Origin: a phage
Sequence record: PZ445426.1
Direction: 5' to 3' (one strand)
DNA length: 58,342 nt
Positions 3,164-57,624 of the stretch are shown piece by piece. A program made the position numbers and the translations under genes. Each line of letters starts with the position of its first letter. Within the stretch, counting starts at the first letter, position 1. Under the pieces are notes generated by a model. It was given only the letters and a program-made list of their open reading frames with translations. It was not told where the DNA came from and made no database searches.

Positions 3164-4036
3164 ATGAAAAAGAGTTCTGTAGCTATCAGTATTGGTCTTG
3201 CTCTAATTAATCCACGCGCTCGCGGTGAAGGTGATGTGGAATTGCAATACGAGTATGCATCTGCGGAAGAAATCCCGGCAGAATTTGCAACTCTTTACGC
3301 AGAGCAGGGCGGTAAATACGTTCTTGCAAAAGTCAAAGGTGTAGCACCTGCTGATAGCGTTCGTCGTCTGGAAAGTGCGTTAGCAAAAGAGCGTAACGAT
3401 CATCGTCAGGTGAAACAACAAATTAGCGCACTGGGACGTCCAGTTGAAGAAGTCCTGGCGGATTTGGATCGTATCCCTGAGCTGGAAGCTGCTGCTAACG
3501 GTAAAGGTAATCCGGAAGACATTGAGAAGATGGTCAAAGCCCGTCTTGCTCCGCTTGAGCGCCAATTGCAAACTGTTATCACCGAGCGTGACACGGTTAA
3601 GCAGGAAATTGAAGGCTACCGCACTCGCGAAACTAAAGCGAAGATTAAAGATGCAGTTATTGCCGCTGCATCCGGTGCTAAGCTGCGTCCGTCTGCTATT
3701 GAAGATGCGGTGACTTATGCACAGTTGCAAATGACAGTCGACGAGAACGGCAATGTGGTTACGAAAGATGGGGCTGGTGTAACTCCTTACCTGACTCCGG
3801 CGGATTGGCTGAACGAAATCCTTCCGAAACGTCCGCACTGGGTTGAAGGTTCTGCTGGTGGCGGTGCATCTGGTCCTGGCGCTGGCGGTCATCACGGTGA
3901 AGACCCGTACAGTCACGACGGTTGGAACATCTCTAAGCAGATGAATCTCTGGAAAACTAATCAATCTTTAGCTAAACGCTTAGCTGAAAAGAATGGCGTA
4001 GACCCGCTGAAGCCTGTACGTCCTGCTAAGAAATAA
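3164..4036 (+). CDS. putative scaffolding protein
   Basis: 290 aa; charged, coiled-coil-like middle and Gly-rich C-terminus; between portal and capsid genes; GGAG RBS. Confidence 0.4.
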   Translation: MKKSSVAISIGLALINPRARGEGDVELQYEYASAEEIPAEFATLYAEQGGKYVLAKVKGVAPADSVRRLESALAKERNDHRQVKQQISALGRPVEEVLADLDRIPELEAAANGKGNPEDIEKMVKARLAPLERQLQTVITERDTVKQEIEGYRTRETKAKIKDAVIAAASGAKLRPSAIEDAVTYAQLQMTVDENGNVVTKDGAGVTPYLTPADWLNEILPKRPHWVEGSAGGGASGPGAGGHHGEDPYSHDGWNISKQMNLWKTNQSLAKRLAEKNGVDPLKPVRPAKK

Positions 4037-4037
4037 G

Positions 4038-4083
4038 TTGACATCCCGACGTCCCTGATGTTAAGTTTCAACACATCAGGGAC
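4038..4083 (+). promoter_or_regulatory. TTGACA hexamer (4038..4043) followed by perfect 11-bp inverted repeat GTCCCTGATGT/ACATCAGGGAC (4051..4083) upstream of capsid gene
   Basis: read directly; no U-tract after the stem so not a classic terminator. Confidence 0.3.
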
Positions 4084-4158
4084 ACGGGTTCCTAAACAGC
4101 CTTCCACGGGGAAAGGCTACCAACAGTAAACAAATCAATCCTTTTCCTGGAGACAAGT

Positions 4159-5220
4159 ATGTCTAAATCTAAAATTATTCTACCATTTGGTCGTGGTGAA
4201 ACTGACCTGACTCGTTTGAAGGATGTCATTGTCCCTGAGATCTTCACTGGTTATGTGCAGACGCAGACTGCTGAACTTTCTGCTCTGATTCAATCCGGTG
4301 CGGTTGTAATGGACGAGCGTTTATCTGCTAACCTTGCTGGTGCAGGTCTGACTTTTAACGAGCCGTTCTATAACGACCTGAAAGATGAAGACGAAGATAT
4401 CGCGGTTGATAAAGGCAATCCGTCCAAACCGTCAAACATCACTACCGGATCTGAAGTTCAGGTTCGTATGAGCCGTTCGAAATCCTGGGGTTCTGCGGAT
4501 CTGGTATCAGCTTTGATTGGTAACGACCCAATGACCGCTATCGGTAACCGCGTGTCTGCGTGGTGGGTTCGCCGTCTGCAAGCTGCATACATCGCAACCT
4601 GGAAAGGCGTATTTGCTAATGCGAAGAAATCCCATAAGGATGATCTGACGTTCGATATTTCCGGTTCTTCATTTGTAAACAACCAGACCAACTTTACCGC
4701 GTCTAACTTCATCAACGCAACTGCAACGATGGGTGATGCTGCTCGTGGTCTGACCATGATTATGGTTCACTCTACCGTTCGTAACCGTATGCGTCAGCTA
4801 AACCTGATCGACTTCATTCCGGATGCTCGCGGCGAAACTCAGTTTGAGTATTATCAGGGTCTGCGTATTATTGAAGACGACTCCATGCCGCACGAACCGT
4901 CTACTGGTGTGTTTGAAAGCTGGCTGTTCGGCCCGGGCGCGACTGCAATGGGTGCTGGATCACCGAAAGTTCCGACCGCTGTGGTGCGTGACGAAGCCGC
5001 TAACCAAGGCGCTGGTGAAGAAGTTCTTCACAACCGTGTTGAATGGATTCTGCATCCGGTTGGCCATGCTTGGGCTGCTACTCAAACTGCTAAAGGTGGT
5101 CCGTCTAACGCTGCAACTACTAACAACCTGGCCCATGAAGATTCCTGGCGTCGTGCGTTCCCTGAGCGCAAGCAGCTTAAAGTTGCGCGCCTGATCACTC
5201 GTGAGTATCAGGGTTCCTAA
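4159..5220 (+). CDS. major capsid protein
   Basis: 353-aa ORF with GGAGA RBS after the scaffold-like gene and before an intrinsic terminator; call by position. Confidence 0.55.
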   Translation: MSKSKIILPFGRGETDLTRLKDVIVPEIFTGYVQTQTAELSALIQSGAVVMDERLSANLAGAGLTFNEPFYNDLKDEDEDIAVDKGNPSKPSNITTGSEVQVRMSRSKSWGSADLVSALIGNDPMTAIGNRVSAWWVRRLQAAYIATWKGVFANAKKSHKDDLTFDISGSSFVNNQTNFTASNFINATATMGDAARGLTMIMVHSTVRNRMRQLNLIDFIPDARGETQFEYYQGLRIIEDDSMPHEPSTGVFESWLFGPGATAMGAGSPKVPTAVVRDEAANQGAGEEVLHNRVEWILHPVGHAWAATQTAKGGPSNAATTNNLAHEDSWRRAFPERKQLKVARLITREYQGS

Positions 5221-5251
5221 GGCTTCACTCAACGCCGCGCTGTAGTATTTT

Positions 5252-5277
5252 GGGGACATTTATGTCCCCTCTTTTTT
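5252..5277 (+). terminator. rho-independent terminator (GGGGACA-ttta-TGTCCCC + T-tract)
   Basis: stem-loop and T-run read directly downstream of the capsid gene. Confidence 0.6.
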
Positions 5278-5289
5278 AGGAGAACAACC

Positions 5290-5613
5290 ATGCGTTATCA
5301 ACGTTATGAACGACATGACTTGATGGAAAAATCGTTGCAGGTGGAGCCAATTTCGATTACTCTCGATCCTGCTACGATTGACACCACAACTTCAGAAGTA
5401 AAAACGGTTACTGTTAAAATAAACTTTGTCCCAGGCGGAACTACAAACAAAGCGTATAGTGCGTCAGTTGACGGTTCCTCTGCTACAATTAAAGACAACG
5501 GGGACGGTACAATTACTGTGACCACAACCGCAAGCAGTGGTACTTCAAACTTGACAGTAACGTCCAAGGCAAAGGATAGTGTTACTGGTACATGTGTTAT
5601 TAATGTGACCTAA
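5290..5613 (+). CDS. Ig-like (Big_2-like) domain protein, possible capsid decoration protein
   Basis: 107 aa; Thr/Ser/Val-rich beta-strand pattern (GDGTITVTTTASSGTSNLTVTSKA) typical of bacterial Ig-like domains; AGGAGA RBS. Confidence 0.45.
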   Translation: MRYQRYERHDLMEKSLQVEPISITLDPATIDTTTSEVKTVTVKINFVPGGTTNKAYSASVDGSSATIKDNGDGTITVTTTASSGTSNLTVTSKAKDSVTGTCVINVT

Positions 5614-5630
5614 AAAATAAGGATTAAACA

Positions 5631-6284
5631 ATGAAGACATTAATTGAAGCATTGTTAGAACTTGATCCGGAGAACCCGAATCATTGGACCAGCGATGGCT
5701 TACCTAAAGTTGATGCTCTGCGTTTCGCTACCGCTAACCCGTCTTTAACCCGCGACGATATTACAACTGCTGCTCCGCTGTTTACCCGCGATAACCGCGT
5801 GCTGGAAGAGCCCGAGCCAGTGGAACCTGTTAAATCTGCTGATCCAGTTTTACATGAATCTGTCAAACAGGAGAAAGCTCATGAAGAACAAAAGAAAGTC
5901 GCGGTTGCAACGATGCAAATCGAAGTTAAGATTAGCGAAGCATTGCGTGCTCTTCTGGAGCCGGAAAAAATCGGTGACACTTCCAGCCTAAGCGATGAAG
6001 AGCTGAAAGCGAAGCGTGAAAAGCTTAGCAATGTGGTTAAAGAGATTGCCCACACTAAGCACGCGCTGGAGCTTGCTATTGCCGACGTTCAAGCGGATCT
6101 GGATAAGATTATCGTTGAGCAGGAAAGTCGTCGTCCTAAGTCCGGTCTTACTGCAACTCAAATGTATCTTGAAGCGCAGAAAAAACGTAAACCTGAAGAC
6201 ATGCTTTCTGACCATCGCTTCCAGAACCCTATTGACGATCCGGTCGCCCGTATGGTTGCACGTAATATGATGCGTCGAGGTTAA
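5631..6284 (+). CDS. hypothetical protein (head module)
   Basis: 217-aa ORF with AAGGA RBS; acidic/coiled-coil-like; no recognisable motif. Confidence 0.45.
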   Translation: MKTLIEALLELDPENPNHWTSDGLPKVDALRFATANPSLTRDDITTAAPLFTRDNRVLEEPEPVEPVKSADPVLHESVKQEKAHEEQKKVAVATMQIEVKISEALRALLEPEKIGDTSSLSDEELKAKREKLSNVVKEIAHTKHALELAIADVQADLDKIIVEQESRRPKSGLTATQMYLEAQKKRKPEDMLSDHRFQNPIDDPVARMVARNMMRRG

Positions 6285-6338
6285 CCATGGAAATGAGCCA
6301 TAGACAATATGTGTTGTGGCTCCTCCGACGTAATAGAA

Positions 6339-6368
6339 AACGGCGTCAAGAAGACGCCGTTTCTGTTC
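6339..6368 (+). terminator. possible weak intrinsic terminator (AACGGCGTC-aagaa-GACGCCGTT + tctgtt)
   Basis: 9-bp stem read directly; poor U-tract. Confidence 0.3.
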
Positions 6369-6422
6369 CTGAAGAAGAGCTCCCGCCGCTTATCCCTACA
6401 ACCATCGCAATGAGGAAGAAAG

Positions 6423-6929
6423 ATGGAGATTTCACTGATAGTTGAAGATGGTACTGGTGTACCGGATGCTAACAGTTATGTGACCATTGAACAAGTCCGC
6501 ATGTATGCCGCAATGCGAGGTATTGTACTTCCAAGTGAAGATGAAGATCTAAAGACAAAGATCTTCGACGCTATGGATTTTGTGGAAGGATACGGTCAAC
6601 GGTTTAAGGGTTACAAAATGGACCCACAGCAACCGCTAAATTGGCCACGCTACGGGGTGTTTGTGGATGGGTTCGAGCTACCCCAAAGCCCTTTACCAAA
6701 GGCGCTTATAAACGCGGTTTGCCAGCTTACAGCGGACTCAGCTACTGGCGGTCCCCTTAATGGGAAAACTACTGCATATGCAGTCAAAAGAACTAAAGTA
6801 GAAGGTCTTGAGATTGAATATGCAACTGGTAGCACAGCACAGTCAGGTCCAGCAAAAACATATGATAAAGCTATGACGTTTTTATCACCTTTGCTGGGTT
6901 ATCAAATGGGTAACAGATTAATACGGTGA
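6423..6929 (+). CDS. putative head-tail connector/adaptor protein
   Basis: 168-aa ORF; first of four short, translationally coupled genes between head and tail genes. Confidence 0.4.
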   Translation: MEISLIVEDGTGVPDANSYVTIEQVRMYAAMRGIVLPSEDEDLKTKIFDAMDFVEGYGQRFKGYKMDPQQPLNWPRYGVFVDGFELPQSPLPKALINAVCQLTADSATGGPLNGKTTAYAVKRTKVEGLEIEYATGSTAQSGPAKTYDKAMTFLSPLLGYQMGNRLIR

Positions 6930-6932
6930 TTT

Positions 6933-7313
6933 ATGAGCTTTCCTTATGAGCAGTTAGTTGAAGCTGCAAAGCAAATGATCAACGACGCTGGCGTGAACTG
7001 TACCCTTGTGGTTATGGAAAAAGGAGAAGGTCAAGATGAGTGGGACGATCCTAGTGTTGAAAAACGCTACCCATTTATCGGAGCTTTTCTTTCTCCGAAG
7101 GAAAAAATGATCGGTGGGAGCCTTGTTGCTACTGGCGAATTGAAAGTCTTAACCTATCCAATGACTCCGCCGCTGACACGTGATAAAGCAATGACTGCAC
7201 GTATTGAGCGCATGTCTCCCGACGGTGAGTTGGAAGTATGGACAATTAACGAGTTCGTTGATACAAGACCTGCTAATGTTTCTGTTCTTTATACTTTCAA
7301 GGTGACGCGATAA
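6933..7313 (+). CDS. putative head-tail joining protein
   Basis: 126-aa ORF; tightly packed with flanking genes. Confidence 0.4.
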   Translation: MSFPYEQLVEAAKQMINDAGVNCTLVVMEKGEGQDEWDDPSVEKRYPFIGAFLSPKEKMIGGSLVATGELKVLTYPMTPPLTRDKAMTARIERMSPDGELEVWTINEFVDTRPANVSVLYTFKVTR

Positions 7314-7720
7314 TGGGATTCGGGGCGGATATACGGCGTGCAAGTCAAAAGGTGCTTGTCCAGACTGGGGAGCAAGCCAAAAAGGTTGTTGTCAAGTTCA
7401 CGGAGAATGTAATTCAGGATACTCCTGTTAAAACCGGACGTACAAAAGGCGGTTGGCGTTCATCCATTGGTGCACCATATGCGACGGAAACTATCCGCCT
7501 CGATCCTACTGGGGAATTAGCTAAAGCGGAAGCTAGGGTTATCGTAAGACAGTTGCCATATGATAAAGACTGGACTTTCTACTTTAGCAACTTGACCCCG
7601 TATGCTCCGAAACTTGAATATCTTGGTTGGTCGCAGCAAGCGCCAAATGGCATGGTGCGTATTAACGTAGCGAAGCTTCCGATGTTGATACGCCAAGCTA
7701 TTGTAGAAGGAAAACTATAA
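7313..7720 (+). CDS. putative head-tail joining / tail completion protein
   Basis: 135-aa ORF; start overlaps upstream stop. Confidence 0.4.
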   Translation: MGFGADIRRASQKVLVQTGEQAKKVVVKFTENVIQDTPVKTGRTKGGWRSSIGAPYATETIRLDPTGELAKAEARVIVRQLPYDKDWTFYFSNLTPYAPKLEYLGWSQQAPNGMVRINVAKLPMLIRQAIVEGKL

Positions 7721-8169
7721 TGCTGGGATACGATTTTATCAATGACGCATTTAATAAGATGCTACGCGAAGCCGTTGGACCGGATATCGGTATAGCTTGG
7801 AAGAACAAGAAGTTTACACCCAAAGCGAATCAGATGTGGTTAAAGGCAATCAATGCACCTGCATCCACATACGCGGCAACGTTAGGTGACAACGGTCTGA
7901 ATGAAATTCCGGGATTCTATCAAGTCACAGTGTACAGTCCGTTAAACACTGGAACGTCTAAACAGAATCAAATCTTGGATTCCATTCGGAAAAAGTTTAA
8001 ACTGGGCTTGCGTATCCCGTGCCCGGATGACCACACGTTACGGATTGTCAGTTTAGACTTTTCGCAAGGTGGGCAAACTTCGCTGAACGATTTTACCAAA
8101 GGCGGGGTTGAAGATAACTGGGACGTTAACTTTATCACAATCTATTGGTCGGCTCGTGAGCCGAGGTAA
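7720..8169 (+). CDS. putative tail terminator / tail completion protein
   Basis: 149-aa ORF; start overlaps upstream stop; precedes major tail gene. Confidence 0.4.
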   Translation: MLGYDFINDAFNKMLREAVGPDIGIAWKNKKFTPKANQMWLKAINAPASTYAATLGDNGLNEIPGFYQVTVYSPLNTGTSKQNQILDSIRKKFKLGLRIPCPDDHTLRIVSLDFSQGGQTSLNDFTKGGVEDNWDVNFITIYWSAREPR

Positions 8170-8183
8170 GAGAGGATCTAAAT

Positions 8184-9107
8184 ATGGCTACAGGTTCACG
8201 TTATTCGTGTTATTACGTCAAAGAAGATGTGAGCAACATAACTCCAGCGAACGCAAAGTTTACCCCGTTTCGTGTAACGAGTTCCGGTCTGGATATTAAC
8301 ATCGCGACGCTGGAGTCTGAAGAGCTGCGCGATGACGCAGAAACCGCAGACTTCCGTCTTGGCGCTCGAAGCGTTGAAGGTACGGTAACAGGCGAAATGT
8401 CCTTCGGTACATTTGACGACCTCATTGCGGCAGCACTGCGCGGTGAATGGCAAGACAACGTCCTTAAAGGCGGTATTGTCCGTCAGTCATTTACTTTTGT
8501 AGACTATAACGCAGATCTGCCGTCAGGTAAATATACAATCTATCGCGGTTGTGAAGTTAATAGCATGACTTTCTCATTGTCTGCTGAAAACATGACCACA
8601 GTAGAGTTCGGTATTGTTGGTCGCTCGATGGAAATTGCGGAATCGCTCCCATCTGGTGCAACTATCAACCCGCGTACAACTACTTCTCCGATGGATGGCT
8701 TCTCTGGCTGCTTGCTGGAAGACGACAAAGAGATCAGCGTTATTACGGAAATCGGTCTTACCGTTGAAAACGATATCGCTCCGCGCTTCGTTGTTGGCTC
8801 AAAGTTCTCCATTGAACCGTCTGCTGGTCGCCGTGCTGTAACTGGTACAGCTAACGTTTACTTCCTGGATAACAAGCTGCGTATGAAGTATCTGGATGAA
8901 GTGGAAACTTCAATCAAGTTTGATCTGATTGACCCAAGCAATCCGGAACAAAAATACACTGTGGAAATTCCTCGCGTGAAATTCACTGAAGCTCCGCGTC
9001 CTATTGACGGTGAAGGGGATATCATGCTTAATATGGGCTACCGCGGATTGCTGGACCCAACAACCGCAAGTTCCATCAAAATTACCCGCGTTTTAGCGGC
9101 AGCATAA
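8184..9107 (+). CDS. putative major tail protein
   Basis: 307-aa ORF with strong RBS directly upstream of the chaperone/frameshift/tape-measure genes. Confidence 0.5.
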   Translation: MATGSRYSCYYVKEDVSNITPANAKFTPFRVTSSGLDINIATLESEELRDDAETADFRLGARSVEGTVTGEMSFGTFDDLIAAALRGEWQDNVLKGGIVRQSFTFVDYNADLPSGKYTIYRGCEVNSMTFSLSAENMTTVEFGIVGRSMEIAESLPSGATINPRTTTSPMDGFSGCLLEDDKEISVITEIGLTVENDIAPRFVVGSKFSIEPSAGRRAVTGTANVYFLDNKLRMKYLDEVETSIKFDLIDPSNPEQKYTVEIPRVKFTEAPRPIDGEGDIMLNMGYRGLLDPTTASSIKITRVLAAA

Positions 9108-18381: not shown

Positions 18382-20508
18382 ATGGCAACTCGTCTACATG
18401 GTATTCTGATGGATGGTTTAAATAAACCAATCATCAACGCTACAGTTGCTCTTATTGCTAAAGGGAACACAATTACCGTTCTTAATGGTAGTGAGGCTAT
18501 ATTTCGCACTGACGGATCCGGTGCGTATAATGTAACTGTCCAGACTGGTCATTATAAAGTAATCATCGGACCTCAAGGTATTGAGCCTTATAAAGCTGGG
18601 GAAATCGTCATTTATGGCGATAGTCCTGAAGGTTCGCTGAACGGATATTTAATTAACTGGGCACCGGAAGAATTAACTCCGGACGTTATTAAACAAGTCC
18701 AGCAACTTGTAGCTAACTCTGAGGAATACGCTCTGCAAGCTGGACGGTCTGCTGCTGCTGCAAACGCAGACGCTACAGACGCACGTAACAGCAAAGCGTC
18801 CGCTGCCTCTTCTGCAAGTGAAGCACTTACATATAAGAACGATTCTAAAGCTAACGCAGATGCAGCTAAACAAGCCCAGTCCAGTGCTGCGGGCTCTGCT
18901 AACACTGCAACCCAAGCTGTAACCACAATAACAAATCTCAAAAAGGATGTTGAAAAGTTAAAGTCGGATACACAGACTATTAAGAATAGTGCAGTAAGCG
19001 AGACGCAAGCAATTAAGGACACCGCTGTGTCCGAAACTACCGCGCTAAAAGACGCTGCTGCTGCTTCAGCTACGAAAGCAGCTAATAGCGCCACCGAAGC
19101 TGGAAAACAAGCAGGCAACGCAGGTACAAGCGCAACAAACGCTAAGAACCACGCAGACCGTGCAAAGACAGAAGCTGACCGTGCGGAAGCTGCTGCCAAC
19201 GATGCACCAGAAATCCAGCCGCTGCCTGATGTGTGGATACCATTTAACGATTCGCTGGATATGATTACGGGCTTTTCGCCATCATATAAAAAAATTGTTA
19301 TTGGTGACGATGAAATAACGATGCCTGGCGACAAGATTGTTAAGTTTAAACGTGCATCGAAAGCAACCTATATTAACAAATCTGGTGTGCTGACAGAGGC
19401 TGCCATTGACGAGCCACGATTTGAACGTGATGGTCTGCTTATTGAGGGGCAAAGAACAAACTACATGCTCAATTCGGAAAGTCCAGATTCTTGGGGTAAA
19501 TCTGCAAATATAAATGTCGCTGATGTTGGAACGGATAGTTTTGGTTTTACTTATGGAAAGTTTGTTTGTAATGATTCATTAATTGGGCAAAGTACAACCC
19601 TTAATATGGCATCAGTTTCAAACGCTGGGGCTGTCGATGTATCTGGCGATAATAAGTATGTGACAACATCGTTGAGATTCAAAACGGATGTTGAGCTCCA
19701 GTTAAGGATTAGGTTTGAAGCATTCGATGGCAGCACTACATCTAATCTTGGATATGTTATTGTTAATACACAGTCTTTATCAGTTAACATGAGCGGTGTA
19801 GCTGCCAGCAGGATTACCGCACGAGTCAACAAAGATGAAGCTACTGGTTGGATTTTTGTAGAGGCAACGATTCAAGCAATTGAAGAAATGTACATAACCT
19901 CTGCAATACAATATGTATCAAAAGCTGGTGGTGTTATTGAATCTGGTGACTATATTTATCTGGCCACTCCTCAGGTTGAGGATGGTTTGTGTGCATCATC
20001 TTTTATTATATCAGGAAAGACGGCGGCGACGCGCGCAAGCGATATGGTTACAGTTCCGATTAAGAATAATCTTTATAATCTTCCTTTTACGGTTCTTTGT
20101 GAGGTACATAAGAATTGGTACAAAACACCGAACGCAGCACCGCGAGTTTTTGATACTGGAGGTCATCAAACTGGAGCAGCAATCATTCTTGCATTTGGTT
20201 CTTCAGCAGATTACGATGGGTTTCCATATTGCGATATTGGTAGGTCTAACAGACGGATAAACGAAAATGCATCACTTGAAAAAATGGTTATGGGGATGCG
20301 TGTAAAGTCTGATCAGTCTACATGCGCAGTAAGTAACGGGCGTATATCTAGTGAAACAAAGACAACTTGGACTTATATTCAAAGCTCTGCAACCATTCGT
20401 ATTGGTGGTCAGACAACAACGGGGCAGCGTCATTTATTCGGGCATGTCAGAAATTTTCGAGTATGGCATAAAGCATTGACTGACCGTGAATTGAAGGAGT
20501 CTGTATGA
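18382..20508 (+). CDS. tail fibre protein
   Basis: 708 aa; N-terminal Ala/Ser/Thr/Asn-rich repetitive shaft-like region typical of side tail fibres; own RBS after AT-rich intergenic region. Confidence 0.6.
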   Translation: MATRLHGILMDGLNKPIINATVALIAKGNTITVLNGSEAIFRTDGSGAYNVTVQTGHYKVIIGPQGIEPYKAGEIVIYGDSPEGSLNGYLINWAPEELTPDVIKQVQQLVANSEEYALQAGRSAAAANADATDARNSKASAASSASEALTYKNDSKANADAAKQAQSSAAGSANTATQAVTTITNLKKDVEKLKSDTQTIKNSAVSETQAIKDTAVSETTALKDAAAASATKAANSATEAGKQAGNAGTSATNAKNHADRAKTEADRAEAAANDAPEIQPLPDVWIPFNDSLDMITGFSPSYKKIVIGDDEITMPGDKIVKFKRASKATYINKSGVLTEAAIDEPRFERDGLLIEGQRTNYMLNSESPDSWGKSANINVADVGTDSFGFTYGKFVCNDSLIGQSTTLNMASVSNAGAVDVSGDNKYVTTSLRFKTDVELQLRIRFEAFDGSTTSNLGYVIVNTQSLSVNMSGVAASRITARVNKDEATGWIFVEATIQAIEEMYITSAIQYVSKAGGVIESGDYIYLATPQVEDGLCASSFIISGKTAATRASDMVTVPIKNNLYNLPFTVLCEVHKNWYKTPNAAPRVFDTGGHQTGAAIILAFGSSADYDGFPYCDIGRSNRRINENASLEKMVMGMRVKSDQSTCAVSNGRISSETKTTWTYIQSSATIRIGGQTTTGQRHLFGHVRNFRVWHKALTDRELKESV

Positions 20509-20780
20509 AAGACTTAACGATGAAATTTAAGGATAAGAAAGCATTTGAAGATTTTCTTGTGGTTATTGATTGGGAAGGCAATGAAACTTTGCAAAATCAA
20601 ATAATGCTTGATGTCATAGGTTACACCTATGCCGAAGTTGAAAGTTTATCGGATGAACCAACACATATTCAAAATAAAGGATATTATGTAAACGTAAGGA
20701 TTATTGATGACTCATTTGATTTTACACAGTACAGTAACCACCGTGTCATTCTTGAGCAACCTTTAAGGGAGTGGGCATAA
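20505..20780 (+). CDS. hypothetical protein (possible tail fibre assembly factor)
   Basis: 91-aa ORF whose ATG overlaps the tail fibre stop (ATGA). Confidence 0.4.
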   Translation: MKDLTMKFKDKKAFEDFLVVIDWEGNETLQNQIMLDVIGYTYAEVESLSDEPTHIQNKGYYVNVRIIDDSFDFTQYSNHRVILEQPLREWA

Positions 20781-20782
20781 TT

Positions 20783-21937
20783 ATGGCTAAAACTATCACA
20801 AACATACCAAAAGATATCACTAACCTTAAAAACGGTAAGTTAGATAAGAGTGCAAACCTTAGCGACTTAGCAGATCGCGAAGTTGCCTGGTTAAACGTGC
20901 GTCCTATTGGACCTACTCCTCTTGCGGGGGATCCTGTGGACGACCTTGACGCAACTACAAAACGTTGGGTGCAGAATAAATTTGACAATGGTATCGCCAA
21001 TACATCATGGAGCGTAATAAACGCAGACCAAAGCGCGCCAGCAGTAGCCACCGTGGTTGTCGGCGGGAAAGTAGAGTCAAAATATACCAATCCTAGTTCA
21101 TCACAGTTTGCACGTCTGTACTCAAGTTCTTCATGGGGTTCTTCTAGTTATGCTGTTGTAGAGGCAGAGGGTTCTTCCAAGCACGCTTATAAATTCTATG
21201 AGAATGGCACAGTTGACTTCCGACAGTCAGGGAAGACCAACCCATTCCGCATGTATACAAATATTGGAACATGGAGTGACATAACGGACGCCACGGTATC
21301 CAACTTGACAACTAACGGAATGGACAGGGTGGCCATTTCGAGCGGCTCAGATACTCTGGTGCGCGGATATTCTATCAGCGCCACCAAACCTAATGGATAT
21401 CCAACAAAGGTTGGATATCACATGTATATTCCAGGCAATGATGCATTTGGTATAGCTTGCATGGTAATCGGTGGAGATAACGGAAAATTTTGCCGTTACT
21501 TTTTTGACATTGATGGTCAAATATATGGTTCGACCGATTACGGGAACTTCAGTTATACGAAAAATGGCACTTCTGACTCACGTGTAAAACACGGCATCGC
21601 CCCTGTTGGAGTTGACAAATCATACTCTAATATTAAAGGGCTGGAATTTGTAGAGTTCATTTATGATAATGACGAACAAAATCGAGTTCGGCATGGCGTG
21701 ATTGCACAGCAAGCAGAGGTTGTTGAGCCTTTATATGTCAAGACGCGCAAATATGTTGGCAATAATCCAGGAGAGATTGTTGAACAAAAGGAACTTGACA
21801 CAACACCTATGCTTTTGGACACTATGCATGTCGTGCAAGAACTTATAAAACGGATTGAATCTTTGCAAGAAGATAATAAGAAACTAAAAGAACTCATTTC
21901 TAATCTAAACAATTCACAGACTACAGATCTTCCATAA
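20783..21937 (+). CDS. tail fibre/spike protein with C-terminal S74-type intramolecular chaperone-like domain
   Basis: ATG 20783 preferred over track GTG 20771; SDSRVKHGI motif (Ser...Lys five residues later) followed by a helical C-terminus, resembling the self-cleaving chaperone domain of endosialidase/L-shaped fibre proteins. Confidence 0.55.
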   Translation: MAKTITNIPKDITNLKNGKLDKSANLSDLADREVAWLNVRPIGPTPLAGDPVDDLDATTKRWVQNKFDNGIANTSWSVINADQSAPAVATVVVGGKVESKYTNPSSSQFARLYSSSSWGSSSYAVVEAEGSSKHAYKFYENGTVDFRQSGKTNPFRMYTNIGTWSDITDATVSNLTTNGMDRVAISSGSDTLVRGYSISATKPNGYPTKVGYHMYIPGNDAFGIACMVIGGDNGKFCRYFFDIDGQIYGSTDYGNFSYTKNGTSDSRVKHGIAPVGVDKSYSNIKGLEFVEFIYDNDEQNRVRHGVIAQQAEVVEPLYVKTRKYVGNNPGEIVEQKELDTTPMLLDTMHVVQELIKRIESLQEDNKKLKELISNLNNSQTTDLP

Positions 21938-21953
21938 CCACATCTAACTTCCT

Positions 21954-21980
21954 CAGCGCGTCTTCGGGTGCGCTTTTATT
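21954..21980 (+). terminator. possible intrinsic terminator (AGCGC-gtcttcggGT-GCGCT + TTTTATT)
   Basis: short GC stem and T-tract read directly after the tail fibre gene. Confidence 0.4.
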
Positions 21981-22107
21981 GGCTGTCAATCCTAATTTAC
22001 AAAATCTTTACATTTGGATCATTGTAAAAAGCATGTTAAGGGGTATGCTTTACTTCGTAACCAGTTGGTTACATCCGCTTAACAAATCCATATATGGAGA
22101 TTTTCCT

Positions 22108-22698
22108 ATGTCTGACATGACTCTTTTACCTACTAATCTCGGTGGCGACGGTTTCGGCGGTGAAGCTGGTGCGGCCGGTATTGGTGGCGCGATCGGTGGC
22201 TTAATTGGTTCCTGGATCGGTAATGGTTGGGGTGGCAATGGTGGTTGGGGTGGTCGCGGTAACTTCGCTGGCCCGGTGGAAGTGCAAGCTTCTGTTGACA
22301 CCAACGCAATTCTGCAAGCTATCAACAACGGTACTCTTCAGACCATTCAGGGGCAGAACGGCACTAACCTGACTGTTGAGCGCTCCGCTGCTTCTACCTA
22401 TAACGGCATCACTCAGCAGAACACTCAGAACATGCTGGCTTCCGTTCAGGGCTTTGCTGGTCTGAACACACAGATCCAGGGCGGCACCAGCCAAGTGCTC
22501 GCGGCTCTGTGTAACAACGAAGCAGCTAACATTACCCGTTCCTTCCAGGCGCAGCTAGAAGCTCAGAAGTGTTGCTGCGAAACCAACCTGAACATCGAGC
22601 GTCAAGCAGAAGCTACTCGTGCGCTCCTGCGCGATCAGCACGCACAAGCGCATAATCATAGTTATTCCAACAAAAGAAATAAGTCATTGCTGCAATAA
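22108..22698 (+). CDS. glycine-rich (glycine-zipper) protein with C-terminal Cys cluster
   Basis: 196 aa from ATG 22108 (GGAG RBS); N-terminus MSDMTLLPTNLGG then long GxxxG-rich stretch; KCCCET near C-terminus. Confidence 0.5.
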   Translation: MSDMTLLPTNLGGDGFGGEAGAAGIGGAIGGLIGSWIGNGWGGNGGWGGRGNFAGPVEVQASVDTNAILQAINNGTLQTIQGQNGTNLTVERSAASTYNGITQQNTQNMLASVQGFAGLNTQIQGGTSQVLAALCNNEAANITRSFQAQLEAQKCCCETNLNIERQAEATRALLRDQHAQAHNHSYSNKRNKSLLQ

Positions 22699-22730
22699 CT
22701 GCACCAATTACAAAATACATAACCACATAT

Positions 22731-22919
22731 TCATGCATCGGTAAACTCCCAAATCAGATTATAATTATTTCCCGCTGGTACATAGCGCCCTGGACGTGGA
22801 TCGAAGCTTTTCACTGAAAACTCCAGCGTTCCAGCGCTATATAGTTGCACCTTTTGTCCGTCCCACGGTCCGCCTATCAATTTAAAAGTCTGTCGATAAC
22901 CTTTTGCAGCTCTAGCCAT
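22731..22919 (-). CDS. hypothetical protein
   Basis: ATG at 22919 with AAGGAG RBS (track start 22925 is GTG); last gene of minus-strand block. Confidence 0.45.
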   Translation of the reverse strand: MARAAKGYRQTFKLIGGPWDGQKVQLYSAGTLEFSVKSFDPRPGRYVPAGNNYNLIWEFTDA

Positions 22920-22930
22920 GCTCACTCCTT

Positions 22931-22956
22931 AAATACCCGCGCGAACGCGGGTATTT
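22931..22956. terminator. GC-rich hairpin AAATACCCGCG-cgaa-CGCGGGTATTT (terminator-like on the plus strand)
   Basis: perfect 11-bp stem read directly; T-rich tract follows on the plus strand. Confidence 0.45.
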
Positions 22957-22961
22957 CTTTG

Positions 22962-23168
22962 TTACGCTTCCGGTGTTTCCGGTGATGGTTCATCAGGAAC
23001 AACAATAACGTCGGCTAAAACTTTTAACGCTTCTTGTTGCTCCGCGGTCATATTATTCCAGTAATAGACGTGAATGTAAACTACTGGTTTGTCACCATGT
23101 TGCCACGGTTCGCGACTTACTACATCCGCAGCTAAATCGCTTGCTACGCTCTTTTCTTTACCAGCCAT
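22962..23168 (-). CDS. hypothetical protein
   Basis: 68-aa ORF in minus-strand operon. Confidence 0.4.
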   Translation of the reverse strand: MAGKEKSVASDLAADVVSREPWQHGDKPVVYIHVYYWNNMTAEQQEALKVLADVIVVPDEPSPETPEA

Positions 23169-23200
23169 GCTAATGTACCCCTTTAAGGTTTTACACGCGG

Positions 23201-23494
23201 CTAACCCCCAAAAGTACCCCTATGATCAAGGGTTCTAATGCGCTGCTCCAGCCAACGTGCGTTCTTTTCAAAATGTTTATTGGTGCGCGCTGCTTTGCAC
23301 GCATCAATAATACCTAACTCACATCCAAGCTGCGTTTGGCCCATCACGTAAGAATGGGTTAACATGCTGGATACAAGTTCTTCACATTGTAACTTAATAG
23401 GATGGTCTTGGCATAGTTTCTTTGCTGCATCCTTTAAATCCACAGCTTGGACGCCAGGCGCTATCAGCAAAGCTACGAGTAATAAACGTTTCAT
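23201..23494 (-). CDS. secreted Cys-containing protein (Sec signal peptide)
   Basis: N-terminus MKRLLLVALLIAPGVQA looks like a cleavable signal peptide; start overlaps upstream stop. Confidence 0.5.
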   Translation of the reverse strand: MKRLLLVALLIAPGVQAVDLKDAAKKLCQDHPIKLQCEELVSSMLTHSYVMGQTQLGCELGIIDACKAARTNKHFEKNARWLEQRIRTLDHRGTFGG

Positions 23495-23778
23495 TATGCT
23501 TTCCCTTTACGACATAAGGCTTGAAGTTCCAGAAGCGCATCAATGTCTTCCTGTGGAGTTACACCAACGTGAATTGGATATTTAGCGCGACATTCGTTGC
23601 CAACTTCAACAGTGTGGTTAATGTAGCCGTAAACACATCCCCCAATAACAGTGAAGATAAGCGCAACAATCATTGTAAGGTATTTACCTTGTTTGCGTTC
23701 TTCATTTTGTTTATTAAGCTGACGGTTAAGTTCCACCGCGTCGATTTTACCTTTGTTGTAATCGTCTACTAAGCTCAT
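23494..23778 (-). CDS. small single-pass membrane protein
   Basis: ATG 23778 with GAGGAG RBS; one hydrophobic helix (LTMIVALIFTVIGGCVYGYI). Confidence 0.45.
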   Translation of the reverse strand: MSLVDDYNKGKIDAVELNRQLNKQNEERKQGKYLTMIVALIFTVIGGCVYGYINHTVEVGNECRAKYPIHVGVTPQEDIDALLELQALCRKGKA

Positions 23779-23841
23779 TTTGCATCTCCTCTTGTTGTAT
23801 ACATATATTAAAACAGACCCGCGAAGGGTCTGCAAGTAGAA

Positions 23842-25827
23842 TTAGGCGTATCCCATGTCTTCGAGATACTTCTCTGCCTTAGCTATATAAGCATCATAAT
23901 CTATGTCGTCCGGTATTTTATCCGGTAGCGTCATGATTGGGACACCTCCCGCGCTACCAGCTACACGGTTGCCCGAGTTAGCATAGATTATTTCAGGGGT
24001 TTCTTCATTGGTGCTTAAATACCAGCGTACAACCTTACCCAAAAATTCGCCATTCCATACCGCGCCACCTTTCACCGCACGTAGGATAATGAATTTTCTA
24101 ATATCGTTGCAATTGCGTATAGTACGAGAAACAGGCGTACCGTGGGCCAAACATTCACATACAGCTTCCATAATAATTTCACCAGTACAGTTCTTTTGAA
24201 GTCCTGTCTTGGCAAACCAGCCCTTACGCTTAACTTCAACGTTACCTTCTGCATCAGGTTCTTTGACAGCTACATAGTTGTTAACGTTCGCGCTATATAG
24301 CTTGTCATAATAAGTGGATTCCATTTCAAAACCTGTGACGGATTCCCACCACTTGATCATGTTATCAACGAAGTCCTGCATGTGGTCGGGATACTTAACC
24401 ACAATACCATCGGTATTCGCTGAAATTACTTTAACACCGTTCAGCTCAAATGCTTCAATAAGCATTAACAGTGATAGTTGCCCTGTGATAGTTACCTGTA
24501 TCAATAATTGCGGCGCGTACAGTACGGACCACATAGACCCTAACTTACCGAACGATCCGTTGATTACGATCTTCAGCGTGTTGGCTGTGTTCTTGTCCCC
24601 TGAGTGCTTAGCTGCAATACGGCGATCTACAATACTTTTATAAACACGAAGGAACGCTGGTCCCAACTGCTCAGGGTATAATCCCTGATTAAGAATAATT
24701 GAAGGGTAATAAGACGTTACGTCAATGTCCCGCTTCTTAATACCAGGCTCTTTACCGTGACCAGCACACTCTTCGGAGCTATGCAAACCGCCAATACCCA
24801 TACGGTAGACACCGTCCGCAATCTTGATTTCAAGACCTGTTAACGCTGGGGGCAAGCTAACGCCACCGTTATCGCTAACAACAAAACGGCAGTCCCGAAC
24901 AATATCCAAAACACTATTCATCAGAGGTGTTTGAAAACGAATAAAGTCCGGTATGTTATACGCATACTTTGTTCCAGGATAAACTTGGGGACGCTGGGGA
25001 CGCACACCAGTTAATGCTTGAATTTCGTGTTTAATTACGTCTTCTGCAATCTGCGCATCAGAACGTGAACGCAGATCCACACCGTATTCTTGCGACATAA
25101 TTTCACGAAGGTGCAAAGGTTCTTGTAATGCAATAAAACATTCTTCTGTCTGTACAAGGTCGTTAATACAGTACCAGCGTACAATTAACATCTGGTCCTG
25201 CGTCAACATTGTATTTGGCTTGAACGGTAAATCCTGCATACGGCGAGTATGTACACGTCCGCCATATTGTTTCAAACCACCAGATCCAGGCAGAACTTCC
25301 ATAATATCAATGTGGTTAACGTTCTGCATACGCTTAAGGCGGTAACTCTTCAACACATCGGAAGGACGCCAATCTTCCACGATTATCTTATCGGTTGCGT
25401 GTTTAAGCTGCGCATTAGAACAGCCGTTAAGCGCAAGCGTAGCAATGGGCATATCGTACCCATTACCGTTAAAGCTTACGATAAGGAAGTTTGTCATTAC
25501 CCAGTTAAGTAACAAGCAATTTAAACTGCAACCGTGATACATTTCAAAGTAGACAACTTTCTTAGTTCGTACTCCGCGGAATGCGATCAAGAAATAGTTT
25601 GGATAACATTCGATATCATATACAAGCGGTTCGCGGTTGATCCATGCTTGAATGAGTTCGTCCTGAGTATACAGGTTATATTGGAAGTTTCGAGCTTCCT
25701 CTAGATTTGGCAAATAATCCGGGCGCTCCCAAGTGCGCTCCGGCGGTAAACGCTTAACCTTTTCTTTCTTCACTTTTGGCTCAGGCGGCAAGTCCTGCCA
25801 AAAGAAACCAATAGCATCGGTCCGCAT
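23842..25827 (-). CDS. DNA polymerase, family-B-like, with 3'-5' exonuclease domain
   Basis: Exo I-like YDIE; DVTSYYPSIIL (motif A DxxSLYPS-like); KIVINGSFGKLG (motif B-like); ATG 25827 overlaps upstream stop (TAATG). Confidence 0.7.
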   Translation of the reverse strand: MRTDAIGFFWQDLPPEPKVKKEKVKRLPPERTWERPDYLPNLEEARNFQYNLYTQDELIQAWINREPLVYDIECYPNYFLIAFRGVRTKKVVYFEMYHGCSLNCLLLNWVMTNFLIVSFNGNGYDMPIATLALNGCSNAQLKHATDKIIVEDWRPSDVLKSYRLKRMQNVNHIDIMEVLPGSGGLKQYGGRVHTRRMQDLPFKPNTMLTQDQMLIVRWYCINDLVQTEECFIALQEPLHLREIMSQEYGVDLRSRSDAQIAEDVIKHEIQALTGVRPQRPQVYPGTKYAYNIPDFIRFQTPLMNSVLDIVRDCRFVVSDNGGVSLPPALTGLEIKIADGVYRMGIGGLHSSEECAGHGKEPGIKKRDIDVTSYYPSIILNQGLYPEQLGPAFLRVYKSIVDRRIAAKHSGDKNTANTLKIVINGSFGKLGSMWSVLYAPQLLIQVTITGQLSLLMLIEAFELNGVKVISANTDGIVVKYPDHMQDFVDNMIKWWESVTGFEMESTYYDKLYSANVNNYVAVKEPDAEGNVEVKRKGWFAKTGLQKNCTGEIIMEAVCECLAHGTPVSRTIRNCNDIRKFIILRAVKGGAVWNGEFLGKVVRWYLSTNEETPEIIYANSGNRVAGSAGGVPIMTLPDKIPDDIDYDAYIAKAEKYLEDMGYA

Positions 25828-56351: not shown

Positions 56352-56789
56352 ATGGCACTTCAACCTCGTGGTATTCGTAATAACAATCCAGGCAATATTC
56401 GCTGGGGTGACAATTGGCAGGGCTTAGTTCCTGCTGATAAGCGGACCGATAAATCTTTTGCTCAATTCACGCAACCGATTTACGGCATTCGTGCACTAGC
56501 GAAAATCCTGACAAACTACACCAAACGTGAAGGCCTGCCAAATGTGGGTAAGAAAAACATCGACACTGTACGTGAAATTATCGCTCGCTGGGCACCGCCT
56601 AACGAAAACGATACGGAAGCGTATATTCGCTCTGTTGCCAAAGCAATTGGTGTTCAACCCAACGATCCAATTAATGTCTTTGACAAGGCAATTATGTCAG
56701 GATTGGTGAAAGCAATCATTCGTCATGAAAATGGCATGATGCCCTATACCGACGACGTAATTAACCGCGCTATTGCAATGGTACTTTAA
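56352..56789 (+). CDS. putative endolysin (by position only)
   Basis: ATG 56352 with GGAGG RBS inside ORF 56082..56789; GIRNNNPGNIRWGD motif; immediately upstream of holin/spanins but separated by a terminator. Confidence 0.35.
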   Translation: MALQPRGIRNNNPGNIRWGDNWQGLVPADKRTDKSFAQFTQPIYGIRALAKILTNYTKREGLPNVGKKNIDTVREIIARWAPPNENDTEAYIRSVAKAIGVQPNDPINVFDKAIMSGLVKAIIRHENGMMPYTDDVINRAIAMVL

Positions 56790-56825: not shown

Positions 56826-57170
56826 ATGTTCAATTCACCCAACGAACATTGGGCAGTTCTAGCGGGGTTTGCGTTTATCTCCCTTATTGGGGGAGCTCTC
56901 GGTTATGTCATGCGTACAATAGACGCTGGTAAGAAAGTAAGGGCAAGCATTGCATTTCTTGAAGGCTTATCCGCCGCTTTCTTTGGTGTTATAATGTATG
57001 CGATCTACAGGGAGTTTAACATCAGCCTTTGGTTCGCTTTTGGCCTTGCTGGCCTATTTGCTTGGGCAGGTTCACGTGCTACGCTAAAAGCCCTAACGTC
57101 GCTTATAGCTTCACGGACAGGGATCAAACTCGATTCAGGGGACTGCAAACATGAAAACGATTCTAAATAA
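56826..57170 (+). CDS. holin (three transmembrane helices)
   Basis: 114 aa; three hydrophobic helices and charged C-terminus; GGAGGGAG RBS; followed by spanin pair. Confidence 0.6.
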   Translation: MFNSPNEHWAVLAGFAFISLIGGALGYVMRTIDAGKKVRASIAFLEGLSAAFFGVIMYAIYREFNISLWFAFGLAGLFAWAGSRATLKALTSLIASRTGIKLDSGDCKHENDSK

Positions 57171-57624
57171 CTTCTTCGGTTTTATAAAAACTAAACCGCG
57201 TCTGTTTATCGAGTATTTGATGATTGGCGCGGTTGTGTTTTTATGCGGGGTGGCCGCCTACTTGTGGTCACAGAACGAGCTCAGCAAAACTAATTTAAAT
57301 CATGCTGAGCAAAGACTAACCGTTGTAGAACAGGACAATGCAAAGCTGGGCGAAGCTGTTGTATTTCTTGCTTCCCAACGGGAGAAGGATACTGAATCTT
57401 ATCGAAAATTGGCTTCAGCAATTGAAAGTGAGCAACATAACCACAGGTTGCTTCAGGACAAATTAAAAGCACTGGAGAAAAGCAATGCCGACGTCAAAGC
57501 TTATCTTAATGAGCGTGTTCCTGATGATTTGCGCAGGCTGCTCGACGGAGATACAACCACCACCACCGCAGATAGTGAAGATAAAACTTCCAGCTCATCT
57601 GTTGGTAGAATGTCGGGAAGTTGA
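57151..57624 (+). CDS. i-spanin (Rz-like)
   Basis: N-terminal TM helix then coiled-coil periplasmic region; overlaps holin stop and o-spanin start. Confidence 0.6.
   Translation: MKTILNNFFGFIKTKPRLFIEYLMIGAVVFLCGVAAYLWSQNELSKTNLNHAEQRLTVVEQDNAKLGEAVVFLASQREKDTESYRKLASAIESEQHNHRLLQDKLKALEKSNADVKAYLNERVPDDLRRLLDGDTTTTTADSEDKTSSSSVGRMSGS

Follow-up and report, generated by a model that had tools for sequence, protein, structure and literature searches.

A truncated CSP1_021 homologue behind the lateral tail fibre genes of a Seuratvirus phage, probably the remnant of an inactivated lysis-suppression module

The Cronobacter/Escherichia phage CSP1 forms turbid plaques, and the cells that it infects elongate and keep the progeny inside (PMC13577005, Kim & Ryu 2025). 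In CSP1C, a spontaneous clear-plaque mutant, a 4672-bp deletion between 14-bp repeats removed most of CSP1_020, all of CSP1_021 and CSP1_022, and part of CSP1_023, and the adsorption, latent period, and burst size of the mutant were unchanged (PMC13577005). Suppression of lysis was restored in trans by 020, 021, and 022 together and by no single gene and no pair, and the three genes blocked lysis by the cloned holin and endolysin (PMC13577005). The block was lifted by holin overexpression or DNP, and the suppression was described as PMF sensitive and of the antiholin type (PMC13577005). In the case of CSP1_021, one TMD was predicted, and the protein was BACTH positive, with vectors pKT25 and pUT18C, for its reported partner CSP1_092, a predicted three-TMD class I holin (PMC13577005). 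Expression of CSP1_020 alone restored the fibre on CSP1C particles (PMC13577005). The lysis-suppression function is known from this one study and this one orthologue. We assigned genes CSP1_020 to CSP1_023 to the 3,081-, 708-, 369-, and 531-bp genes at the locus in KY982929 (CSP1) because these sizes match those in PMC13577005.

The intact protein is similar to the antiholins T4 RI/RIII, P1 LydB, and lambda S107 in that it is membrane associated and binds holin, and in that its lysis delay is released on PMF collapse; it has a single predicted TMD, as do RI and LydB. In contrast to the classical antiholins, to which it has no sequence similarity, the CSP1_021 family is encoded outside the lysis cassette and has homologues beside unrelated holins. 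CSP1_021 also differs from them because it needs two further proteins, including the product of a tail fibre gene, and because it acts at low MOI without superinfection (PMC13577005).

The window analysed here is a 58,342-nucleotide phage sequence (PZ445426.1). Megablast placed it in Seuratvirus (Queuovirinae), with CAjan, Greed, slur01, CSP1, and BASEL phages. It is probably a whole genome in the CAjan orientation, since the holin, endolysin, and spanin genes are located at 56.35-57.8 kb, like those at the right end of CAjan. The gene of interest is a 196-aa open reading frame at 22108..22698 on the plus strand, and a GGAG ribosome-binding site, read directly from the sequence, is located 8 nt 5' of its ATG (22096..22099). 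The product begins with MSDMTLLPTNLGG; its first 55 residues include 22 Gly residues, and this Gly-rich N-terminus carries 10 overlapping GxxxG motifs, followed by a middle rich in Q, A, L, T, and N and by KCCCET at residues 154-159. The sequence-only reading had described this ORF, its Gly-zipper N-terminus, the KCCCET motif, and one hairpin on each side (21955-21974 and 22931-22956), and all of these features are real. A sigma-70 scan found no plus-strand promoter between the upstream terminator and the ATG. The exact 196-aa protein was not found in a collection of 15 billion proteins.

The ORF was homologous to CSP1_021 (177 of 182 residues identical, 97%) and matched phrog_9288 with an E value of 2.4e-95 over profile positions 1-180 of 234. 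Codons 1-181 (22108..22652, plus strand) constitute the native part of the gene, which belongs to the CSP1_021/CAjan gp21/phrog_9288 family. CAjan gp21 is 235 aa long and ends ...AQAQAVLICDLKSQLQ...NFKLPTPPTPPTGCC. The window protein tracked CAjan gp21 through residue 181 and then continued with HNHSYSNKRNKSLLQ and a stop; the 54 residues beyond the match in CAjan gp21 are conserved family-wide. Hence, the full-length protein with the ICDLK...NFKLPTPPTPP C-terminus was not present in the window, and residues 182-235 were replaced. The intact gene has already been described, and the feature in the window is a damaged copy of it.

The nucleotide comparisons located the damage. In the megablast search, positions 21932-22652 matched Seuratvirus relatives at 95-97% identity (97% in the case of CAjan), and the match was lost abruptly after 22652. 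In a local BLAST, 21932-22652 was collinear with CAjan locus 4001-4722 and 22647-24585 was collinear with CAjan locus 6780-8722, so that the match to CAjan and KurtStettler jumped from locus position 4722 to 6780 with a 6-bp overlap. This overlap was a single AGCGCA at the junction (22647..22652); CAjan and KurtStettler carried both breakpoint copies, and in intact relatives the two copies were about 2.06 kb apart. The pattern is that of a microhomology-mediated deletion of about 2063 bp at AGCGCA. Codons 182-235 of gp21, including the conserved ICDLK...NFKLPTPPTPPTGCC end, were lost, as were the whole homologues of gp22, gp23, gp24, gp25, and gp26, and the convergent gp27 homologue was shortened at its 3' end. 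The junction at 22647-22652 was spanned by no record in a 50,697-genome phage collection, and the deletion may be an assembly artefact or a subpopulation variant.

Downstream of the junction, the ORF ran into a non-native tail (22653..22698, plus strand) that was the antisense of the truncated convergent gene. The 15 foreign codons consisted of the junction codon His182 (22651-22653) followed by NHSYSNKRNKSLLQ, plus the stop. In the convergent gene (22613..22738, minus strand), a small membrane protein homologous to CAjan gp27 is truncated. It matched phrog_23919 over profile positions 1-36 of 68 and, in a comparison with CAjan gp27, retained 36 of 68 native residues. The two ORFs overlapped by 86 nt, and each ended in the antisense of the other.

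These results do not support the picture of an insulated single-gene cassette, or moron, between terminators that had been drawn from the window. The ORF stands isolated because of the 2.06-kb deletion, and its insulation is an artefact: its last 15 codons are foreign, and two minus-strand ORFs (22613..22738 and 22731..22925) are located between it and the downstream hairpin. Moreover, the gp21 gene heads a conserved operon of four to five genes in relatives. The downstream hairpin (22931..22956) is strong and conserved (-16.7 kcal/mol, z -4.2), but it is not the native terminator of the gp21 module. It is the counterpart of the CAjan hairpin between the gp28 and gp29 homologues, which is located more than 2 kb further downstream in intact relatives. 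In those relatives, the plus-strand module ends at a bidirectional terminator after gp25, AAAGGGGCaaacGCCCCTTT, which was deleted in the window. The hairpin at 22931..22956 lies within a minus-strand cluster, immediately upstream of the ribosome-binding site of the gene ending at 22925, and a T-rich run follows it on the plus strand. It could stop antisense read-through, or it could stabilise or process the minus-strand mRNA.

The upstream hairpin was a more balanced case. An intrinsic-terminator-like hairpin and U-tract (21955..21981, plus strand) is located directly 3' of the tail fibre gene. In the hairpin itself (21955-21974), which begins 18 nt past the tail fibre stop, a UUCG loop caps an 8-bp stem, and UUUUAUU follows as the tail. 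Its energy alone was unremarkable (-9.3 kcal/mol, z -0.9), and seven terminator-like sites were seen in the region compared to 7.0 expected from shuffles. The earlier description of the hairpin as terminator-like was supported by its stem, loop, and U-tail and by the annotated terminator at the matching place in related GenBank records, but not by its energy.

The gene immediately upstream of the truncated ORF (20771..21937, plus strand) encodes the distal lateral tail fibre protein (388 aa), whose C-terminus carries an intramolecular chaperone domain of the Peptidase_S74 type (PF13884, residues 268-320, E value of 1.1e-8 in Pfam), and its product matched PHROG tail fibre families. In function, this fibre corresponds to CSP1_020, the third lysis-suppression component. 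Compared to CSP1, the fibre upstream in the window is a different allele that is split over three genes. The lateral tail fibre locus (18382..21937, plus strand) encodes proteins of 708 aa (phage_tail_N), 91 aa, and 388 aa (S74). A three-gene fibre locus is also found in KarlJaspers (Hanrivervirus) and KurtStettler (Seuratvirus), whereas CAjan and CSP1 have a single fibre of 1026 aa.

The second partner was absent. In CAjan, KarlJaspers, and PY100, the gp21 gene is followed by phrog_9157, phrog_8329, and phrog_7239 in the same order. In distant members (a 64.7-kb metagenomic phage contig and short contigs), the genes that follow encode proteins of about 110, 163-183, and 82 aa, and the first of them matched phrog_9157 in two of three cases. 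The pairing of gp21 with phrog_9157 is thus kept in distant relatives, which fits the reported co-requirement. In the window, the place of the adjacent CSP1_022/phrog_9157 partner falls within the deleted CAjan locus 4723-6779, and no phrog_9157-type ORF was found at 22650-23200. The CAjan genes gp22 to gp25 (positions 4957-6357 of locus L002), all deleted in the window, showed some features of their own. CAjan gp22 contains a stretch rich in His, HHHEHEKEEYKHAHSYARDHEH, and BASEL records label it a "putative pyrophosphatase", for which Pfam and the PDB give no support; gp25 is a 67-aa Cys-rich peptide with an aromatic FFRIF tail. Searches of Pfam, NCBIfam, PADLOC, and PDB sequences returned nothing for the four downstream CAjan module proteins.

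The lysis genes of the window were located via tblastn with CAjan gp88-gp91. The holin (56826..57170, plus strand; 114 aa) was 99% identical to that of CAjan and 93.9% identical to the CSP1 holin, CSP1_092; thus, a CSP1_092-type holin is encoded in the genome. It is flanked by the endolysin gene (56352-56786) and the spanin gene (57151 to about 57621), and all three genes were intact. The lambda Rz-type i-spanins are similar to the gp21 family in architecture only (an N-terminal anchor and a long helical Cys-containing domain). An i-spanin reading was rejected because there is no homology and the window has its own separate spanin at about 57151-57621. In addition, a block at the spanin step is argued against by the CSP1 phenotype, in which the cells are elongated and unlysed.

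Taken together, the comparisons indicated that the ORF is a C-terminally truncated CSP1_021 allele, most likely a pseudogene-like remnant of a lysis-suppression module that is no longer active. In CSP1, the full-length 235-aa protein binds the holin in the two-hybrid assay, and CSP1_021 acts with the S74-type fibre gene CSP1_020 and with CSP1_022 to produce a PMF-sensitive suppression of holin-endolysin lysis (PMC13577005). In the window, the AGCGCA deletion cut off the C-terminus of 021, the CSP1_022 homologue, four further genes, and the 3' end of the convergent gene, and would leave the module inactive and the ORF as a pseudogene-like remnant. The module should be inactive because all three components are needed in CSP1 and the 022 homologue is gone; accordingly, the phage is predicted to be fast lysing and to form clear plaques. 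Its behaviour would be like that of CSP1C, with prompt lysis and clear plaques, but with the tail fibre kept. Among the points against this interpretation, holin binding might survive in the truncated protein, which keeps the Gly zipper and some 70% of its helical domain, and the window's fibre allele, from a three-gene locus, differs from the CSP1_020 that was tested.

An alternative, which we considered unlikely, is that the truncated protein is still expressed and active and that its zipper binds the holin or the membrane and tunes lysis timing, with neither the lost C-terminus nor the 022 partner. In favour of this alternative, the window retains the ribosome-binding site and start codon as well as 181 native residues with the predicted TMD, intact relatives are 97% identical to it upstream of the gene, and the holin is present. 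However, no single gene or pair restored suppression in CSP1, and the 54 C-terminal residues that were lost are among the best conserved in the family. Independent deletions of the whole locus or parts of it are also common, as expected for a dispensable locus.

The window and CSP1 share the genus, the location of the gene right behind the lateral fibre gene, the zipper TMD, the CCC motif, and the holin type. The window copy differs in that 15 foreign codons stand in place of residues 182-235, and its locus lacks the CSP1_022 homologue and three more module genes. As in CSP1C, a deletion at a short direct repeat in the same locus destroyed the lysis-suppression module; the repeat was 14 bp and the deletion 4672 bp in CSP1C, compared to 6 bp and about 2.06 kb in the window. 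CSP1C lost the fibre, 021, 022, and part of 023. In contrast, the window kept the fibre and most of 021 and lost the 022 to gp26 homologues and part of the gp27 homologue. The annotation should be corrected so that the ORF is flagged as a truncated lysis-suppression remnant that is neither a toxin nor a moron. Since relatives with turbid plaques and delayed lysis behave differently, the prediction of prompt lysis is relevant to the choice of phages for therapy or biocontrol.

To characterize the family, we examined its alignment, its distribution, and a predicted structure. Homologues of 225-237 aa were found in Seuratvirus, Nonagvirus, Sashavirus, and Hanrivervirus (Drexlerviridae), as well as in the Yersinia phages PY100 and P400, Hafnia phage yong3, and Edwardsiella phage eiAU-183. 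The family alignment showed conserved N-terminal elements (MSDMTLLP, the zipper G(A/G)xGGLIGSW(F/I)GNG, and QGFAGLN) and further conserved elements (CCCETNLNIERQ, ICDLK, and NFKLPTPPTPP), and the zipper segment was nearly invariant across the family. The CCC motif (residues 155-157; 22570..22578, plus strand) is a hallmark of the family and is located within the predicted long helix. In the family alignment C157 was invariant and C155 and C156 were at least 90% conserved, and the motif was retained in distant relatives. A profile search of 1.8 billion representatives yielded 132 relatives. The 18 that were read were mostly about 200-300 aa long with a Gly-zipper N-terminus and the CCC motif, two longer repeat proteins among them were apparently spurious matches, and a known family was reached from none of these 18 remote relatives. 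Prediction of the structure, which had been proposed earlier as a check, was carried out with AlphaFold2 on a 42-sequence alignment and gave a low-confidence model (pLDDT 55) with a disordered Gly-rich N-terminus and one helix at 65-221; a Foldseek search with the model matched nothing in the PDB.

These data also bear on the idea that the ORF is a moron for a pore-forming Gly-rich bacteriocin, microcin, or colicin-like toxin that is exported via a double-glycine leader, which we considered extremely improbable. The resemblance was confined to composition, namely, the Gly-rich zipper and the GG at residues 12-13. The N-terminal segment ending in GG is not conserved, since most homologues have an indel at NLGGD, and the family thus lacks a conserved site for double-glycine cleavage. 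In addition, the protein had no match in Pfam, NCBIfam, PADLOC, or a PDB sequence search, the bacteriocin and colicin families in Pfam and NCBIfam were among those unmatched, and genes for a C39-peptidase/ABC exporter, immunity, or lysis release were absent nearby. A class II microcin or double-glycine bacteriocin was rejected in view of the missing conserved leader and of neighbours that are fibre genes and small phage ORFs. A colicin was rejected because Pfam, NCBIfam, and the PDB held no match and because the model shows a disordered Gly-rich segment and then one long helix. Finally, one long helix makes up most of the 235-aa family protein, and the orthologue delays membrane permeabilisation instead of causing it.

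The zipper segment AGAAGIGGAIGGLIGSWIG (residues 20-38; 22165..22221, plus strand) was the only candidate transmembrane helix. It was the top 19-residue Kyte-Doolittle window, with a borderline hydrophobic mean of 1.27. The charges around it were weak (-3 on the N flank and 0 on the C flank) and weakly favoured an N-out orientation. Against this signal, both partners are cytoplasmic, namely, the fibre protein and gp22, in which neither a signal peptide nor a TMD is present. The vectors pKT25 and pUT18C put reporter fragments at the N-termini of both fused proteins. The two-hybrid constructs and the natural fusions described below force an N-in topology, and bulky N-terminal tags on both membrane proteins may have forced a topology in the two-hybrid assay that is not native.

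In line with some GenBank annotations, a role for the gp21 product as a tail-fibre accessory protein (an assembly chaperone, a sugar-binding protein, or a virion-associated fibre component) was also considered, and we judged it very unlikely. The gene is always behind an S74 fibre gene in Seuratvirus, Hanrivervirus, and T5-like Epseptimavirus, where the gene directly upstream has Peptidase_S74, and a long helix was predicted in its product. Homologues are labelled "putative sugar-binding protein" or "putative lateral tail fiber chaperone" in BASEL records, but the BASEL paper offers no justification for either label. The product had no similarity to known Tfa/chaperone families in PHROG or Pfam, and a comparison with tail fibre assembly proteins and chaperones gave no tail-category PHROG or Pfam match. 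Furthermore, the module is located away from fibre genes in PY100 and in the 64.7-kb metagenomic phage contig, where no fibre gene is adjacent, and CSP1_020 by itself restored the fibre of CSP1C. A literature search found no usable virion proteomics of CAjan-like phages.

A survey of the locus in Seuratvirus, with CAjan 4007-7060 as the query, provided further evidence on the role of the gene. The region was intact in about 19 phages, and about 10 had other deletion alleles. KS_A3 and KS_S4 have lost gp21 to gp25 with the fibre intact, and the full-length fibre gene of KS_A3 without a gp21 gene speaks against a fibre-accessory role. The deletion alleles of phiG7 and CSP1C also lack the gp21 gene, PLYYY01 and GottfriedDienst have other deletion alleles, and those of WildeMaa, KS_W4, and Seurat were inferred from coverage only. 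Two alleles are natural in-frame fusions to fibre fragments, which a fibre-accessory protein could explain: in KurtStettler (L001:3124-4656) the S74 domain is joined to gp21 at residue ~19, and in SHIN8 (L012:2104-2712) the fibre N-terminus is joined to gp21 residues ~167-235. The fusions may be no more than inactivating deletions, or they may point to a physical association of gp21 with the fibre. A Rosetta-stone argument from S74 C-terminal fragments was rejected because the alignment shows only generic S74 conservation, and the fibre-gp21 link thus stays hypothetical. The recurrent deletion alleles indicate that the gp21 gene is dispensable for plaque formation, and they match the spontaneous clear-plaque deletants reported for CSP1. 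Deletions thus cluster in the tail fibre-to-gp25 locus of Seuratvirus, a hot spot at which roughly one in three sequenced isolates is affected. The earlier view of the gene as an accessory gene and not a tail or virion component held up, given that phages without it (KS_A3, phiG7, and CSP1C) are viable and that its product is predicted to be membrane located.

The gp21 gene heads a conserved multi-gene module that is common to several phage families, and the published mechanism of specific holin binding is hard to square with the presence of this module in phages that have unrelated holins. The Seuratvirus holin family was confined to Queuovirinae-like phages and some Pseudomonas, Klebsiella, and Providencia phages, and a holin of this type was not found in Drexlerviridae, T5-like phages, or PY100. 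The gp21 homologues of Seuratvirus and Hanrivervirus are 71% identical over the ~170 residues aligned by BLASTP, yet the 71-aa holin of KarlJaspers showed no similarity to the 114-aa one. This coexistence of Hanrivervirus homologues with an unrelated 71-aa holin makes strict holin specificity of the mechanism uncertain. The mismatch may reflect generic binding via helix-helix packing of the Gly zipper, a recent transfer of the module, or a real target other than the holin.

A broader and more speculative proposal, which we regard as unlikely, is that phrog_9288 supplies the membrane component of a portable module (phrog_9288-9157-8329-7239) in which tail-fibre maturation is linked to the timing of lysis. 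Such a module may, for example, sense the auto-released S74 chaperone fragment. The family would then not be a holin-specific antiholin, and its targets could be unrelated holins or the energised membrane as such. This proposal is hinted at by the ~70% identity of the module between Seuratvirus and the T1-like Hanrivervirus, which have unrelated holins, by the location of the gene next to S74 fibre genes in three phage families, and by the natural fusions to fibre fragments, of which the KurtStettler fragment includes the S74 domain. If it were true, the window would be a natural knockout of an assembly-to-lysis checkpoint.

Part of the locus is also found outside the Seuratvirus phages. The segment at 21938..22230 (CAjan L002:4007-4305) spans the intergenic region and the start of the gene, where ~120 nt encode the Gly zipper. 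Counterparts with 84-96% nucleotide identity are present in T5-like phages (Kenya-K38/K45 and Gostya9) and in FritzHoffmann and ChristophMerian (Nonagvirus). In these phages, the remainder of the gene has diverged or is missing, a pattern that resembles a mosaic or recombination boundary moving together with tail-fibre cassettes. In the T5-like Salmonella phage vaffelhjerte (L006:4752-5342), the homologue is split by a stop or frameshift into parts of 123 aa and 67 aa, and several other Epseptimavirus records carry "hypothetical protein (x2)" downstream of the S74 fibre gene. These Epseptimavirus copies look like decaying genes that have no partner genes.
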